Positions 6,947 to 12,785 of a DNA stretch of 64,000 nt are shown here, piece by piece. How positions within the stretch are numbered: position 1 is the first letter of the stretch; each line of letters opens with the position of its first letter. The translations under genes and the position numbers were made by a program. Source of the stretch: Escherichia coli (lineage in GTDB: Bacteria > Pseudomonadota > Gammaproteobacteria > Enterobacterales > Enterobacteriaceae); NCBI RefSeq assembly GCF_030384885.1, contig NZ_CP128613.1. One strand, 5' to 3'. The notes below the pieces were generated by a model that saw only the letters and a program-made list of their open reading frames with translations, did not search any database and was not told the origin of the DNA.

Positions 6947-7390
6947 ATGACTTATAAGCGTCCCGTTTCTATTCTGGTGGTTATTTATGCGCAAGATACG
7001 AAACGGGTGCTGATGTTACAGCGGCGTGATGATCCCGATTTCTGGCAGTCGGTAACCGGCAGTGTGGAAGAGGGGGAAACCGCGCCGCAAGCCGCCATGC
7101 GCGAAGTAAAGGAAGAGGTCACCATTGATGTTGTCGCTGAACAACTGACCTTAATTGACTGTCAGCGCACGGTGGAGTTTGAAATTTTTTCACATTTACG
7201 TCATCGCTATGCGCCGGGCGTAACGCGTAATACGGAATCTTGGTTCTGTCTTGCACTCCCGCACGAGCGCCAGATCGTTTTCACTGAACATCTGGCCTAC
7301 AAGTGGCTTGATGCGCATGCTGCGGCGGCGCTCACAAAGTCATGGAGCAACCGGCAGGCGATTGAACAGTTTGTAATTAACGCTGCCTGA
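6947..7390 (+). CDS. nudB: Dihydroneopterin triphosphate diphosphatase (Nudix)
   Basis: 147-aa ORF starting 2 nt after aspS stop; Nudix box [20 protein letters not shown]; exact start uncertain. Confidence 0.85.
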
Positions 7391-7418
7391 ACAGGCAGGG
7401 CTACCTGGAGATATTTTT

Positions 7419-8159
7419 ATGGCAGGTCATAGTAAATGGGCCAACACCAGACATCGTAAAGCTGCGCAGGATGCTAAGCGCGGTAAAATCTTCACTAAAA
7501 TCATTCGTGAACTGGTAACCGCGGCGAAGCTGGGCGGTGGAGATCCGGATGCTAACCCGCGTCTGCGAGCAGCCATTGACAAAGCACTGTCTAACAACAT
7601 GACCCGTGACACCCTGAACCGCGCAATTGCACGTGGTGTGGGCGGTGATGATGATGCAAACATGGAAACCATCATCTACGAAGGTTACGGTCCTGGCGGC
7701 ACGGCAATCATGATTGAATGTCTGTCTGATAACCGCAACCGTACGGTTGCTGAAGTGCGTCACGCATTCAGCAAATGTGGCGGTAACCTCGGTACTGATG
7801 GTTCCGTAGCCTATCTGTTCAGCAAAAAAGGCGTGATCTCCTTCGAGAAAGGCGATGAAGACACCATCATGGAAGCAGCTCTGGAAGCTGGTGCTGAAGA
7901 TGTTGTGACCTATGATGATGGCGCGATTGACGTCTACACTGCATGGGAGGAAATGGGCAAAGTACGCGACGCTCTGGAAGCGGCAGGTCTGAAAGCAGAC
8001 AGCGCGGAAGTTTCCATGATCCCGTCCACCAAAGCTGATATGGATGCAGAAACCGCACCGAAACTGATGCGTCTGATCGATATGCTGGAAGATTGCGACG
8101 ACGTGCAGGAAGTCTACCATAACGGTGAAATCTCTGATGAGGTTGCAGCGACTCTCTGA
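7419..8159 (+). CDS. yebC: YebC/PmpR (TACO1) family transcriptional regulatory protein
   Basis: 246-aa ORF; translation recognised as YebC. Confidence 0.93.
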
Positions 8160-8193
8160 TGAGGCCTGCTAAACAGCAAAACGGAGACGCGTG

Positions 8194-8715
8194 ATGGCTA
8201 TTATTCTCGGCATTGACCCGGGTTCGCGCGTGACCGGCTATGGCGTCATCCGCCAGGTGGGCAGGCAGCTGTCCTACCTGGGTAGCGGATGTATACGCAC
8301 CAAAGTAGATGATTTACCGTCTCGTCTTAAGCTCATCTATGCGGGCGTGACGGAAATCATCACCCAGTTCCAGCCTGATTATTTCGCCATTGAACAAGTC
8401 TTTATGGCTAAAAATGCCGACTCGGCCCTGAAGCTGGGGCAGGCGCGTGGCGTGGCGATTGTGGCGGCGGTGAATCAGGAATTACCGGTATTTGAATACG
8501 CGGCACGTCAGGTAAAGCAAACGGTGGTAGGTATTGGTAGTGCCGAAAAAAGCCAGGTGCAGCATATGGTTCGCACCTTGCTGAAACTCCCCGCTAATCC
8601 TCAGGCGGATGCCGCTGATGCGCTGGCAATTGCCATCACCCACTGCCACGTTAGTCAGAATGCGATGCAGATGAGCGAATCGCGGCTGAACCTGGCGAGA
8701 GGGCGACTGCGTTAA
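8194..8715 (+). CDS. ruvC: Holliday junction resolvase RuvC
   Basis: Translation recognised as RuvC ([17 protein letters not shown]...); second Met taken as start (173 aa). Confidence 0.92.
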
Positions 8716-8716
8716 G

Positions 8717-9319
8717 TTATACCGCCTCAGTCAATTCAGGCTGAGGCGTTTCTACTCCCTCCGCATGAATCAACACCAAACCCGGATGATGCCACAAACT
8801 GGCTGGTGTTACGGTTTTACGCTCCCACGGAATCGAACCTAAAAACCAGAATTTCCAGAAAGTGAGTTTTGCGTTCGGATTGCTATTTAGCAGTTCTCCA
8901 AACGTCTCTATTTCACCCACCGGAATACATAACGCCTCTTTATAAATATCAAAAACGAATTTTGAGCAGAACTGGCGGGAAGATTCGTATTTAAAGCCGG
9001 TGTGGTAGAGCTTATGCAACCGTCCGGGGACCTTTTCGACCAGAGCAAGTTTTTGCTCTGCGGTTAAACCTCCTGCGAGGCGGCGAACACCGTAGCGTTG
9101 ATCGGTCGACCGTTCAATAAATCGTGACAAAGTTGTGATTGTGGAGAGCGGAACTCGACTCTCCGCAACCAGGTAATCATCACCGTCATGTCCGATGATT
9201 ATCCCCACATGGTTGCTCCAGCATTTCGAGGCTGCAGAGATTTGCCCAAACAGGCGAGCACCGATGCAGGTAAAAACAATATCACCGGTTTCATATTTAG
9301 CTGGGTAATTTATTTTCAC
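8717..9319 (-). CDS. yebB: DUF830 family protein
   Basis: 200-aa ORF convergent on ruvC; translation recognised as YebB. Confidence 0.82.
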
Positions 9320-9412
9320 TATATCAATCCATTATTTATATATAAAACAGCATCTATCTTTCGTGATGGTAAAGCATTAGCATTGTATTATAATAATGAC
9401 AAGGAATGTTTT

Positions 9413-10237
9413 ATGCGGTTATTTATTAATGTGATAATTATAGTTTCGATCAGTCAATGCGTGAATGTATTTGCTCAAGATAATGTCATCCGCTATCCCT
9501 GGCGATATGGACGTATTTCTTTAAATGAGAATAATGAGTTTGTGCCTCAAATTATTCATATGCGTGATGATATCTACGGCGTGGGTGAAGCTGGTGCAAG
9601 CCTTAACGATGCGAGAATGGCGCAAAGTGGTGTCGCCGTGAGGCTTAGCGTTATACAGCAGGGGCAGGTGGTGAATGCTTTACTGGATTTCTACAATAGC
9701 AATAATCAACCTGCTTATATCTTTGAAGGTGGTTTGATGCCTTGCAATAAAGCCTTTGACATCACAACAAGCAACATTGTCCTTGATGGGATGTGTGGAA
9801 TTTATGATGGGGTCGATGGCTGGCAAGTTATTCCTGCGGGTGATCATTATAAAGAATCATTTTCACTCACTCAGGCTTTTGAATTTCTGCCGGGAAAACA
9901 TCATTATAAAATTAATGCCGGAAGTTTTATCATCAGAGTCGGGGATGATATTTTTGCAAGAGAGGACGCCGAAAGCATTCTTTTTGATTTGATTAACTGG
10001 CGATATGGCTATGTGCTAAAAAGTTATGAAAGGGTGTCGAAGTGGGATTTAATGGCAGGGACTTATGTACTGCCTGAATACTCGGGGGATAAAAGAATGG
10101 ATGAGTATCGAATTTACTCAAACCAGGTGTCGATTGATCTTAATGGTGACGAGTTAGCACATACGGAGTCCTATCAGTGGCGAATTGATAGCGGAATGAT
10201 CCCGGAAAAATTCAGCGTTCAGGAACTCGCTGAATGA
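9413..10237 (+). CDS. Hypothetical secreted protein (signal peptide), unknown family; not part of the K-12 gene order as I recall it
   Basis: 274-aa ORF from ATG 9413 with AAGGAA RBS 6 nt upstream; N-terminus MRLFINVIIIVSISQCVNVFA/QD looks like a SPase I signal peptide; AT-rich codon usage; track ORF from 9188 overlaps yebB and is not the likely start. Confidence 0.6.
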   Translation: MRLFINVIIIVSISQCVNVFAQDNVIRYPWRYGRISLNENNEFVPQIIHMRDDIYGVGEAGASLNDARMAQSGVAVRLSVIQQGQVVNALLDFYNSNNQPAYIFEGGLMPCNKAFDITTSNIVLDGMCGIYDGVDGWQVIPAGDHYKESFSLTQAFEFLPGKHHYKINAGSFIIRVGDDIFAREDAESILFDLINWRYGYVLKSYERVSKWDLMAGTYVLPEYSGDKRMDEYRIYSNQVSIDLNGDELAHTESYQWRIDSGMIPEKFSVQELAE

Positions 10238-10274
10238 ATCGTCCTCTACCTGCTTGCCAGATACAGAGGCGCGG

Positions 10275-10859
10275 ATGAATTTATCAAGCGTATTCAATCA
10301 GCTTTTAATCTCATTTGCTCTTGCCGGGACGTTGATATTAAGCAGCTATCTCATGAAAGCTCACTACCCACGTTTCAGGAAGCCAATTGCGCTCTTTTAC
10401 TTCTTTTTAGCGATTTATACCAGTTATGCTGCCGTTCAGGAGTATGAGTACCACCGCAATAGCTTGACTACGCTCGCAAAAGTTTCTTCGATTCGTTATA
10501 CCAGTAATTTTAAGCGTAGCGCCTCGCACTCCTGCAATTTACTGCGGGGAGGAAGGATTGATTGCTCGGGGCTGTATGCCTATGACCTGACCTGGCAGAT
10601 TGACGGTAAGACCTGGAATTTGCATGTTGAGGACAAGCGTATAAAACCAGGAATCACCATGTGCGTGAAGGTTGTAAAAGATCGCCCCGCCATCGGGAAA
10701 CCCTGTGAAAACGTGTTTTTCAATATCAGCCCTTTGCCGATTCTGATAGCTATATGGGCAATAAGCGCATTTATATTTGCGGTCTTACTCCTTCACCAAC
10801 TAAAAAAATGCCGCGAATGGAAGCACGCCAGCAAGGAACGTGGAAAAATTGGCCATTAG
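10275..10859 (+). CDS. Hypothetical membrane protein, three predicted TM helices with Cys-rich loop, unknown family
   Basis: 194-aa ORF from ATG 10275 with GAGG RBS; 37 nt after upstream ORF stop; hydrophobic helices near N-terminus (x2) and C-terminus; basic C-terminal tail; AT-rich. Confidence 0.55.
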   Translation: MNLSSVFNQLLISFALAGTLILSSYLMKAHYPRFRKPIALFYFFLAIYTSYAAVQEYEYHRNSLTTLAKVSSIRYTSNFKRSASHSCNLLRGGRIDCSGLYAYDLTWQIDGKTWNLHVEDKRIKPGITMCVKVVKDRPAIGKPCENVFFNISPLPILIAIWAISAFIFAVLLLHQLKKCREWKHASKERGKIGH

Positions 10860-10957
10860 AAGTCAAAGAAAGAGTGCGATGTAAGGTGATTCATAGAAAA
10901 TTTCAGATACCGTGAGCCAAAGGATTATCAGTTCTGAAATGATTTAATATCATCCCT

Positions 10958-10977
10958 CGCTGGATATCTATCCAGCA
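10958..10977 (+). promoter_or_regulatory. LexA (SOS) box of ruvAB operon
   Basis: cgCTGGATATCTATCCAGca, CTG-N10-CAG palindrome about 50 nt upstream of ruvA start; matches the known ruvA SOS box. Confidence 0.8.
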
Positions 10978-11026
10978 TTTTTTTATCATACAGCATTATC
11001 TTTGATTCATTACGCAGGAGCGTCAT

Positions 11027-11638
11027 GTGATAGGCAGACTCAGAGGCATCATCATTGAAAAACAACCCCCGCTGGTATTAATTGAAGTGGGCGGCGTAGG
11101 CTATGAAGTGCATATGCCGATGACCTGTTTTTATGAACTCCCTGAAGCGGGTCAGGAAGCGATCGTTTTCACCCACTTTGTGGTGCGTGAAGACGCGCAA
11201 CTGCTGTACGGTTTTAACAATAAACAAGAGCGCACGTTGTTCAAAGAGTTGATCAAAACCAACGGCGTTGGGCCTAAACTGGCATTGGCAATCCTCTCCG
11301 GAATGTCAGCGCAGCAGTTCGTTAATGCCGTTGAGCGTGAAGAAGTCGGGGCTCTGGTGAAACTGCCGGGTATTGGCAAAAAAACCGCCGAACGCTTGAT
11401 TGTCGAAATGAAAGACCGATTTAAAGGTTTACATGGCGATCTCTTTACGCCAGCTGCCGACCTGGTACTCACGTCACCTGCGAGCCCGGCGACCGACGAT
11501 GCTGAACAGGAAGCGGTTGCCGCGCTGGTGGCGCTGGGCTATAAACCACAAGAAGCAAGCCGCATGGTGAGCAAAATCGCTCGCCCTGACGCCAGCAGTG
11601 AAACATTAATTCGCGAAGCCCTGCGCGCCGCGTTATGA
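11027..11638 (+). CDS. ruvA: Holliday junction branch migration complex subunit RuvA
   Basis: 203-aa ORF with GTG start; translation recognised as RuvA. Confidence 0.95.
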
Positions 11639-11643
11639 GGTAA

Positions 11644-12657
<1,014 letters not shown>

Positions 12658-12698
12658 GTTGAATAAGGCATTCAAGCCGCTTCCGACATTGGCGATAA

Positions 12699-12785
12699 GC
12701 CTGATGCGACGCTGTTCGCGTCTTATCAGGCCTACCAAAAGTAGCGAACCGTAGGTCGGATAAGGCGCTCGCGCCGCATCCGACA
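12699..12785. repeat. REP/BIME extragenic palindromes (two units)
   Basis: gcctgatgcgacgctg...cttatcaggcctac and gtaggtcggataaggcgctcgcgccgcatccgaca between ruvB and znuB. Confidence 0.7.

Follow-up and report, generated by a model that had tools for sequence, protein, structure and literature searches.

The DNA analysed here is a window of 64,000 nucleotides from Escherichia coli (contig NZ_CP128613.1 of assembly GCF_030384885.1), in which ruvA and ruvB, with the LexA operator and the promoter located in front of them, are preceded by two accessory genes, ORF-A and ORF-B, the latter in the same orientation as ruvA (Table 1). The start assigned to ORF-A, which renders a product of 274 aa, agrees with the annotation of strain R32_14_1F. 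Neither ORF-A nor ORF-B matched a Pfam, NCBIfam or PADLOC family, no solved-structure relative was detected by sequence for either of them, and an AlphaFold model of ORF-A (pLDDT 73) gave only weak beta-sandwich matches, with a TM score of ca. 0.3, to the AsaP1 structure and to a protease inhibitor.

Table 1. Features of the region between ruvC and ruvB, in coordinates of the window
Feature	Position	Strand	Details
yebB	8717..9319	-	5' half (9002-9319) shares one divergent haplotype block with ORF-A and ORF-B
Hairpin between convergent ruvC and yebB	8723..8748	+	10 pairs, 7 GC; dG -17.9 kcal/mol
ORF-A	9413..10237	+	274 aa, predicted signal peptide; first of the accessory pair; Shine-Dalgarno AAGGAA 7 nt upstream
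ORF-B	10275..10859	+	194 aa, membrane protein, four invariant Cys; stop TAG 10857-10859
Allele-specific non-coding spacer 3' of ORF-B	10860-10949	+	no K-12 counterpart (blastn blocks, column-by-column comparison)
Inverted repeat	10900-10907 and 10933-10940	+	perfect 8-bp arms ATTTCAGA and TCTGAAAT, 25 nt between arms
Weak promoter-like match	10925-10953	+	TTATCA-17-TATCAT, 9/12 matches, inside allele-specific sequence
ruvAB control region common to K-12	10950-11026	+	76/77 identical, mismatch at 10956
20-nt LexA site	10958-10977	+	CGCTGGATATCTATCCAGCA
LexA operator palindrome and T-run	10959-10976; T7 10978-10984	+	GCTGGAT-ATCT-ATCCAGC, then A10977 and T7
LexA 16-mer box	10960-10975	+	CTGGATATCTATCCAG, CTG-N10-CAG form
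ruvAB sigma-70 core promoter	10961-10989	+	-35 TGGATA 10961-10966, 17-bp spacer, -10 TATCAT 10984-10989
ruvA	11027-11638	+	GTG start 11027-11029, Shine-Dalgarno AGGAG 11016-11020
ruvB	11647-12657	+	

Homology to K-12 detected by blastn is arranged in two blocks, 7102-9333 and 10950-12700, and the right-hand breakpoint, between 10949 and 10950, is located 10 bp before the LexA box. From this point on the two sequences are nearly the same, differing over 10950-11149 only at positions 10956 and 11077, and the RuvA product is WP_000580323.1, the same RefSeq protein as in K-12. The LexA box is identical to that of K-12, has the CTG-N10-CAG form of a near-consensus box, and is the single match in the window (0 in 100 shuffles), so that the initial annotation was right in describing both the box and the GTG start of ruvA as intact. 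The coordinates first given for the box, 10958-10977, correspond to the 20-nt LexA site (Table 1). The box overlaps the -35/-10 elements right before ruvA-ruvB; the promoter match was also found in K-12 by the promoter scan, its hexamers are those given by Shimada et al. 2014 (PMC3946193), and we infer a transcription start near 10995. The comparison with the K-12 ruvAB promoter thus renders as common features the LexA box, the -35 element, the 17-bp spacer, the -10 element, the Shine-Dalgarno sequence, the GTG codon and the RuvA protein, whereas only the upstream neighbour is different (ORF-A and ORF-B, 1616 bp, instead of a 183-bp yobI segment), together with a divergent 5' half of yebB. The Shinagawa and Lloyd groups reportedly described the SOS promoter and LexA operator of K-12 ruvAB in 1988; the feature flagged here is this textbook promoter, unchanged, and there is consequently no sign of abnormal control of Holliday-junction processing in the source strain. 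On the basis of near-identity to K-12, binding of LexA and induction by DNA damage are predicted for the promoter of the window. For the ruvAB site a heterology index of 7.6, a ca. 2-fold SOS induction and a high basal level have been described (PMC11228462).

The exact 18-mer palindrome was used to retrieve the corresponding region from 71 species of Enterobacterales, in counts that include related species and do not represent independent events. In 46 of the 71 the ruvC stop is found 5-32 nt (mostly 5-11) before the palindrome, or 8-35 nt if the stop codon is counted, while the remaining species bear various small gene sets between ruvC and the palindrome. Cross-genus alignments are conserved only from the palindrome onward, or from ca. 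10 bp earlier within the lineages that bear yebB. These comparisons bear on the suggestion, made in the initial annotation, that upstream promoter elements had been displaced, i.e., that acquired DNA had removed or replaced an UP element or an activator site, changing ruvAB expression or its SOS control. It is true that the sequence upstream of 10950 (ca. -45 from the putative start) is wholly unlike that of K-12, is somewhat AT-richer and contains a weak promoter-like match. That match, however, is at chance level (about 5 sites scoring 9/12 would be expected in the 3.1 kb scanned) and is probably fortuitous, and the start site predicted for it would coincide with the LexA box. Since conservation starts at the palindrome in the 71 species, there is no conserved upstream element available to be lost: the conserved sequence at ca. 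-40 to -60 among orthologous promoters by which an UP element or activator site would be recognized was not found, and this position corresponds to the 3' end of ruvC coding sequence in those 46 species, so that a common element is unlikely. With K-12 homology running from 10950 to the GTG codon with one base different, displacement appears very improbable, and we are highly confident that the ruvAB promoter is intact, with no element missing.

The block of ca. 1.6 kb upstream takes the place of the yobI segment of K-12 and is not an addition to it; no yobI-like sequence was found in the 64-kb window. The G+C content of the block, in 300-nt windows, is ca. 33-48%, as compared to ca. 52% in the flanks. 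Divergence from K-12 extends to yebB, whose region shows an identity per 100-nt bin of 59-76% over 9002-9301 and of ca. 89-99% further left. The N-terminal half of YebB is 94-96% identical to the proteins of genomes labelled E. fergusonii and of locus L004 and 77% identical to that of K-12, whereas the C-terminal half is identical to K-12, which makes yebB a mosaic. Hence the left boundary of the block is a gradient within yebB and the right boundary is sharp. The gene pair is present in 19 of 5426 complete E. coli genomes, in 19 places that are all chromosomal and correspond to one locus (94.8-100% identity), and the divergent yebB allele (at least 90% identity) in 20. Genomes labelled E. fergusonii bear ORF-A and ORF-B at the same yebB-ruvA locus; at the same position, locus L003 has both genes, with an ORF-A identity of 49%, and locus L004 has ORF-A only (71% identity), while locus L009 has only a homolog of ORF-B. 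ORF-B homologs are located immediately before ruvA in the E. fergusonii-labelled genomes, L003 and L009. Besides the E. fergusonii-labelled genomes, the lineages with genes of the block at this locus are two more divergent ones, apparently Superficieibacter- and Pseudocitrobacter-like.

The initial annotation had treated the two genes as an inserted cassette. A mobile cassette of the integron, IS or phage type, recently inserted at a specific target by the LexA box, would be consistent with the low G+C content, the rarity of the gene pair and the sharp right boundary. On the other hand, no integrase, transposase, attC-like site or target duplication was found among the ORFs and flanks of the block, and the direct repeats searched for as insertion scars rendered only chance-level two-copy pairs of 10-18 nt. 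Neither of the two hallmarks of such an element was thus observed, i.e., a recombinase or repeats, and presence at several loci or on plasmids: among the 5426 genomes there are no plasmid copies and no other locus, and the copies differ by up to 5%. Moreover, synteny is the same in other genera at 49-71% protein identity, and the left boundary is not a sharp junction. Since E. fergusonii-labelled genomes and two divergent lineages have the two genes at this very position, it follows that the block was spread or maintained by recombination within the core genes on either side and not as a mobile element. A recent mobile insertion is accordingly hardly credible; the sequences point instead, very probably, to an old and rare allele whose locus is fixed. 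In E. coli, ORF-A/ORF-B (rare) and yobI (common) are alternative haplotypes of this gap. As a separate matter, yobI was considered as a relic of the signal-peptide region of ORF-A, from a resemblance noticed by eye (MYIFITHFF and MRLFINVII), and this was rejected, since aligning the K-12 segment locally to the block gave a score of 20 as compared to 21 +/- 2.3 for shuffled sequences.

The distance from the ORF-B stop to the LexA box, given before as about 100 nt, is exactly 100 nt. The spacer differs among carriers by a 12-nt indel, and a search of 8600-11700 for RNA families detected no known family at E <= 1. In agreement with the statement that no strong terminator separates ORF-B from the LexA box, the terminator scan of 10860-10958 rendered zero terminator-like sites. 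The 99 nt of this interval comprise 37 A, 15 C, 20 G and 27 T; with so few C residues, the spacer does not resemble a Rho loading site. A weak imperfect repeat had been noticed at around 10890-10935, and an inverted repeat does exist there, but its arms are perfect and are located somewhat further downstream (Table 1). It was discarded as a terminator candidate: its arms are A/U-rich, no T-run is found behind it, its folding (dG -9.8 kcal/mol, z -0.49) is equalled by 58 of 200 shuffles, and in the fergusonii-type allele one pair is broken without compensation.

Given that ORF-B is directed towards ruvA and that the spacer is empty of terminator-like sites and not C-rich, a polymerase leaving ORF-B would reach the LexA box. 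To this extent, the read-through into ruvAB that had been regarded as conceivable is supported, but the path beyond the spacer includes a hairpin followed by U7 that overlaps the operator. The terminator scan flags the LexA palindrome itself in the window, and flags the corresponding site in K-12 and Salmonella; this terminator form of the palindrome plus T7 had been overlooked in the initial annotation. The hairpin has a perfect stem of 7 bp with 4 G-C pairs and a 4-nt loop, and T7 is separated from the stem by a single A. Its dG is -9.1 kcal/mol in isolation and -10.6 in context (z = -4.55), and the minimum-energy fold of 10850-11030 retains it. Among the attributes by which intrinsic terminators are recognized, a stable G+C-containing stem, a loop of 3-8 nt, a 3' U-tract and a position after a gene in the same direction are found at the operator. 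A strict motif, defined as a perfect stem of 6 bp or more and, no further than 2 nt from it, a run of 6 or more T, was found 6 times in 64 kb, as compared to 0.08 expected, and coordinate mapping places the other five matches ca. 6-108 nt after a same-direction stop codon. Of the six, the operator hairpin is the least stable, and a 1-nt gap between stem and T-run is found in it alone. A d'Aubenton-Carafa-type score, in our own implementation, is -19 with the tail starting at the stem end and +23 with the tail starting one base further on.

Further information was obtained from the 71 species, which are uninformative as to conservation of the core stem, their retrieval having required the exact 18-mer. 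A T-run of at least 6 is found behind the palindrome in 61 of them. The stem is extended by at least 2 pairs in 43 of the 46 species with an abutting ruvC and by at most 1 pair in 17 of the 25 others; the extension reaches 10 pairs in Salmonella arizonae and has been lost in Escherichia, where a C/A mismatch occupies the first flanking position. In 40 distinct sequences, the first flanking pair is G-C in 29, A-U in 4, G-U in 1 and unpaired in 6, and the second is A-U in 20, G-U in 2, G-C in 1 and unpaired in 17. Distant taxa pair the flanks by different bases (A-U then G-C in Photobacterium; AAAAC/GUUUU in Limnobaculum). Five cells appear changed on both sides of the flanking pairs, as compared to 0.7 in shuffles, although few lineages are involved and the core was held constant by the retrieval; the first flanking pair is part of the 20-nt LexA site, and its covariation cannot be separated from the symmetry of that site.

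Taken together, these features suggest that the operator hairpin may act as a terminator or insulator, a proposal that we regard as a serious possibility a little short of probable. It can also be the case that the palindrome and the T-run are merely operator and promoter spacer, with no role in termination, and that little transcription arrives from upstream, that LexA or Rho halts it, or that it enters ruvAB in the manner of a ruvCAB operon. LexA symmetry by itself accounts for the core palindrome and, as indicated, the covarying pair also falls inside the LexA site; the T-run could be a favourable AT-rich promoter spacer, and both could be conserved without a role in RNA. The dependence of the terminator score on where the tail starts points in the same direction, as do the co-transcription of ruvCAB in other bacteria and the E. 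coli data on 3' ends and full-length transcripts, whose supplements (PMC7815308, PMC6131387) contain no ruvA or yobI rows and hence no 3' end at this site. A literature search on LexA boxes acting as terminators found nothing relevant. Against an operator without a role in RNA stand the occurrence of the strict motif elsewhere in the window solely at gene ends, the longer extension of the stem beyond the LexA site in those species where ruvC has no other terminator, and the maintenance of pairing by different bases in Photobacterium and Limnobaculum. In addition, as compared to the LexA consensus TACTG(TA)5CAGTA (PMC11228462), the ruvAB box departs at position 4 (G) and position 13 (C), and through these departures the RNA stem gains a G-C pair. 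We consider a purely operator role possible but rather doubtful.

The evidence on the hairpin also bears on whether transcription of ORF-A and ORF-B continues into ruvAB to the extent of giving substantial SOS-independent expression in the source strain. In favour of this, besides the co-directional genes and the spacer, are the low stability of the operator hairpin, its 1-nt gap and the lack of stem extension in Escherichia, as well as the abutment of ruvC in most genera, as a result of which ruvC-ruvA co-transcription may be ancestral and tolerated. However, the hairpin and U7 in the path belong to a class whose other members in the window are all located at gene ends, and LexA bound at the operator would form a roadblock, as would be expected of DNA-bound repressors in general. 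Moreover, no promoter above threshold was found on the + strand before ORF-A, the low G+C content of the block is typical of poorly expressed acquired DNA, and with a high basal level of ruvAB and an induction of only ca. 2-fold (PMC11228462) a minor contribution would easily escape notice. Substantial read-through is for these reasons unlikely, and read-through into ruvAB is probably limited.

As a more tentative generalization from the sequence comparisons, the ruvAB LexA operator could serve two uses across Enterobacterales: as DNA it would be the LexA site and the -35 element, and as RNA, together with the T-rich spacer, it would serve the preceding transcription unit as intrinsic terminator, this unit being yebC-ruvC in most genera, yobI in K-12 and ORF-B here. 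In the explanation favoured for the window, the palindrome and the T7 of the promoter spacer would constitute, once transcribed, a modest intrinsic terminator for the upstream gene, the client of which would change with the lineage, being ruvC in most genera, yobI in K-12 and ORF-B in the window, and LexA bound at the operator would add a roadblock at the same spot. The ruvAB transcripts would arise nearly all from their own promoter, leaky and roughly 2-fold SOS-inducible, and the accessory genes would alter ruvAB transcription little. The putative terminator resembles known intrinsic terminators in its perfect 7-bp stem with 4 G-C pairs, its 4-nt loop, its U7 tract and its location downstream of a same-direction stop, but differs from them in that the stem doubles as a protein site, the U-tract coincides with the spacer of the promoter that follows and is reached only after a 1-nt gap, no other member of its class is as weak, and its role as a terminator is a prediction. 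If this holds, one compact sequence would be operator, promoter element and terminator, caution would be required in annotation and operon prediction near SOS boxes, and the built-in insulation would explain the repeated uptake of unrelated gene sets at the ruvC-palindrome junction without disturbance of ruvAB SOS control. Overall, the explanation that we favour, as somewhat probable, is that the window contains an ordinary, compact and self-contained LexA-repressed ruvAB promoter beside a gap that varies naturally and is occupied here by a rare allele, a grade that is a compromise among those of the steps, i.e., the intact promoter, the old allele and the operator terminator.

That ruvC abuts the palindrome in 46 of the 71 species makes a same-direction gene beside the ruvAB promoter the normal situation. 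Where other genes intervene, the nearest one is almost always directed into the palindrome, and most inserts end in a same-direction gene 27-114 nt before it; K-12 has the same layout, with the palindrome ca. 70 nt after yobI. Judging from these genomes, the location of a gene next to the operator is general and not peculiar to the source strain. Contiguous ruvC-ruvA-ruvB genes are co-transcribed in other bacteria as ruvCAB operons, which the enteric arrangement resembles in the closeness of ruvC to the ruvA control region in those 46 species, but from which it differs in having a LexA operator between ruvC and ruvA. Escherichia differs further in bearing yebB and other genes between ruvC and ruvA and in having for ruvC, which no longer abuts the palindrome, a hairpin of its own between ruvC and yebB (Table 1), which is its predicted terminator in this genus. 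Hot spots of gene gain are known to occur between conserved core genes, and the ruvC-ruvA gap is comparable to them in its small gene sets that differ per lineage, its core-gene flanks and an exchange that apparently takes place by homologous recombination, whereas it is distinguished by its very small size, by the LexA palindrome that is always its right edge and by its lack of mobile-element genes. The gap between ruvC and the ruvA operator is a small recurrent site of gene gain in Enterobacteriaceae.

The junction upstream of ruvA carries the usual ruvAB SOS promoter, intact, beside a rare, old accessory-gene haplotype. The gene order in the window is aspS-nudB-yebC-ruvC, yebB (minus strand), ORF-A, ORF-B and ruvA-ruvB, then znuB and znuC; E. 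coli strain 2013C-4282 is a 100% match over 8600-11200. The K-12 counterpart consists of yebB (minus strand), yobI (21 codons, plus strand) and then ruvA. Homology blocks between the window and K-12 cover 7102-9333 and 10950-12700, and 1616 bp in the window replace 183 bp of K-12 that include yobI. The right-hand breakpoint is found 10 bp 5' of the LexA box, at ca. -45 from the inferred start, and only two bases (10956 and 11077) differ from K-12 in 10950-11149. The core promoter detected by the promoter scan carries the hexamers given for ruvAB by Shimada et al. 2014 (PMC3946193). The comparison shows that operator, promoter and leader are of K-12 type and intact, with a same-direction gene pair upstream and no terminator-like site between that pair and the operator. 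The LexA box, the GTG start of ruvA and the distance of about 100 nt from the ORF-B stop codon, as read in the initial annotation, are all present.

Coordinates of features between yebB and ruvA
Feature	Position	Strand	Remarks
ORF-A	9413-10237 (most likely extent)	+	274 aa, signal peptide
ORF-B	10275-10859	+	194 aa, transmembrane segments, four invariant Cys
ORF-B stop TAG	10857-10859	+	100 nt ahead of LexA box
Inverted repeat	10900-10907 / 10933-10940		perfect 8-bp pair
LexA 16-mer CTGGATATCTATCCAG	10960-10975		single copy in window; 0 in 100 shuffles
Core promoter TGGATA-17-TATCAT	10961-10989	+	promoter scan
ruvA start GTG	11027	+	AGGAG at 11016-11020 ahead of GTG

A scan for GCTGGATATNTATCCAGC in one genome per species rendered 71 loci with the motif just 5' of ruvA. 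Conservation runs from the LexA operator palindrome onward (T-run, TAT(G/C)AT, leader and GTG), and the sequence 5' of it varies solely with the gene present there, which leaves the allele no conserved promoter element upstream to displace. With the K-12-type promoter also intact, it is very unlikely that the insertion displaced promoter elements, as had been proposed. The last ruvC codon is located 8-35 nt 5' of the palindrome in 46 of the 71 species, including Citrobacter, Salmonella, Enterobacter, Klebsiella, Cedecea, Buttiauxella and Erwinia; the distance is commonly 8 or 14, so the ruvC stop codon is usually 5-11 nt away. In most of the remaining species the gene adjoining the palindrome is oriented like ruvA, with its end 27-114 nt ahead of the palindrome. 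As a rule, then, the ruvA operator is preceded by a gene that reads into it in the direction of ruvA. The intervening genes are yebB and yobI in E. coli, yebB and a gene for a 228-aa membrane protein in E. albertii, a regulator and a 293-aa dehydrogenase-like gene in a Kosakonia/Enterobacter group, and a PstS-like gene with yebB, ORF-A and ORF-B in E. coli strain 24A16CRGN010 and in L003, a locus from a more divergent, apparently Superficieibacter-like lineage. Seven loci (L012, L110, L096, L072, L100, L003 and L131) hold unrelated small gene sets in the ruvC-ruvA gap, which looks like a miniature gene-gain hot spot.

The terminator scan found no terminator-like site in 10860-10958, in agreement with the earlier reading that no strong terminator separates ORF-B from the LexA box. 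The inverted repeat noticed there exists, but its arms are perfect rather than imperfect and slightly displaced from the region first indicated (10890-10935). Shuffled sequence folds equally well (z = -0.49), no T-run is present 3' of the repeat, and in the fergusonii-type allele one pair is lost without compensation. A promoter-like TTATCA-17-TATCAT (10925-10953, plus strand), in the allele-specific sequence just 5' of the LexA box, is kept among carriers; it is a chance-level match whose start would land on the operator.

The same scan flagged the operator itself in the window, as GCTGGAT-ATCT-ATCCAGC followed by A and T7. In K-12 the operator hairpin is the sole match after yobI, and in Salmonella arizonae, where the operator is also flagged, flanking bases lengthen the stem to 10 pairs. 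By itself the hairpin has -9.1 kcal/mol, and within its context -10.6 (z = -4.55); when 10850-11030 is folded as a whole, both the minimum-energy and the centroid structure retain it. Under a strict motif definition, requiring a perfect stem of 6 bp or more that includes no fewer than 3 G-C pairs, a 3-8 nt loop and, no more than 2 nt away, 6 or more consecutive Ts, the 64-kb window gave 6 matches versus 0.08 in shuffles. When we placed their coordinates on the K-12 gene table and the list of ORFs, the remaining five fell ca. 6-108 nt past the same-direction stops of mepM, prc, htpX, pyk and a 286-aa ORF. None of the six is weaker than the operator site, which alone has a 1-nt gap; on a d'Aubenton-Carafa-type scale, as implemented here, it scores -19 or +23, according to the origin of tail counting, and the ruvC/yebB hairpin (8723-8748) +3.8. 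The 71 species are related, and counts taken across them do not represent independent events; in 61 of them the palindrome is followed by a T-run of 6 or more, a feature outside the search pattern. The core stem is fixed by the search pattern; past the 18-mer, at least 2 extra pairs form in 43 of the 46 ruvC-abutting species, and at most 1 in 17 of the 25 others. The first flanking pair, still inside the 20-nt LexA site, is G-C in 29 of 40 distinct sequences, A-U in 4, G-U in 1 and unpaired in 6, these last being yebB-bearing lineages. Photobacterium and Limnobaculum have 5-8 extra pairs, built from different bases.

These sequence features suggest that the LexA operator may double as the terminator for the unit upstream throughout Enterobacterales, the sole mildly new idea here; if true, this would explain why the ruvC-ruvA gap accepts insertions. 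It is only slightly less probable that palindrome and T-run are only operator and spacer, ruvC-ruvA co-transcription being tolerated. With an operator-terminator, RNA polymerase leaving ORF-B would meet the hairpin and U7 (and LexA when bound) and mostly stop, and ruvAB would be transcribed from its own promoter, with a start near 10995. Its behaviour would be that of K-12, whose ruvA is induced only about 2-fold and has a poor LexA box, with a heterology index of 7.6 (PMC11228462); Salmonella ruvA shows no detectable induction by nalidixic acid (PMC8072944). The G+C content of the block is low (ca. 33-48% in 300-nt windows, versus ca. 52% in the flanks) and no promoter above the scan threshold precedes ORF-A, the best candidate, read directly from the sequence, being a TATAAT at 9389-9394 with a poor -35; together these suggest low input transcription. 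Significant read-through into ruvAB is unlikely, with some chance left to it because the operator hairpin is weak in Escherichia. In a read-through RNA the U-tract could pair within an 11-nt perfect complement, TAAAAAAATGC (10801-10811, near the ORF-B end) with GCATTTTTTTA (10975-10985, operator end and T-run), which is probably due to chance, the expectation being ca. 0.4 such pairs per 1.85 kb.

The ORF-A/ORF-B block is an old alternative haplotype, swapped by recombination in flanking core genes, that replaces yobI. All relatives with readable context lie between yebB and ruvA (locus L010, too short to show neighbours, falls outside this comparison): in E. fergusonii-labelled genomes, in L003 with both genes (ORF-A identity 49%), in L004, apparently Pseudocitrobacter-like, and L005 with ORF-A only (71%), and in L009 with ORF-B only. 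Of 5426 complete E. coli genomes, 19 carry the block, on the chromosome every time, in one copy each and at 94.8-100% identity; a divergent yebB 5' allele (at least 90% identity) occurs in 20, so the two are linked. The block contains no integrase or transposase, and no flanking repeats beyond chance were found. Its confinement to one locus and the replacement of yobI, which is absent from the 64-kb window, likewise tell against a mobile cassette, the term first applied to it, and make that origin highly improbable. The left boundary is not sharp: identity to K-12 is 59-76% per 100 nt over 9002-9301, most of the yebB 5' half, and ca. 89-99% in bins left of 9002. The C-terminal half of YebB is identical to that of K-12; the N-terminal half is 77% identical to it and 94-96% identical to the E. 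fergusonii-labelled and L004 proteins. A recombination breakpoint lies inside yebB, a mosaic with a K-12-like 3' half and a divergent 5' half (9002-9319) linked to ORF-A and ORF-B.

The nudB-yebC-ruvC segment (6947-8715) is 99.2% identical to L008, an E. fergusonii-labelled locus, versus 95.9% to K-12, while ORF-A is 91.8% and the whole 7.6-kb locus 92.8% identical to L008; this patchiness suggests repeated exchange between lineages around the locus. The collinear 47 kb (window 1-51258) show only 96-97% identity to K-12, which places the source strain in a fairly distant lineage. The missing yobI encodes a 21-aa stress-response small protein in K-12.

ORF-A (secreted) and ORF-B (membrane) make up a very small orphan family, known to date only from the yebB-ruvA interval of a few Enterobacteriaceae, with 6 and 4 clusters, respectively, among 5.8 billion proteins and no Pfam, NCBIfam or PADLOC match for either. 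RefSeq gives ORF-A in the source strain as 349 aa from 9188, overlapping yebB by ca. 130 nt; the 274-aa start fits better, with a Shine-Dalgarno sequence and signal peptide, and is so annotated in R32_14_1F. The ORF-A model predicts a beta-sandwich with helices (pLDDT 73), a fold matched only weakly, by the AsaP1 structure and by a protease inhibitor. Two promoter-like sites on the minus strand face yebB, TTCACG-17-TATAAT (9437-9465), within the ORF-A 5' end, and TTTATA-17-TATAGT with a TG motif (9318-9346), and the control regions of yebB and ORF-A may thus overlap on opposite strands.
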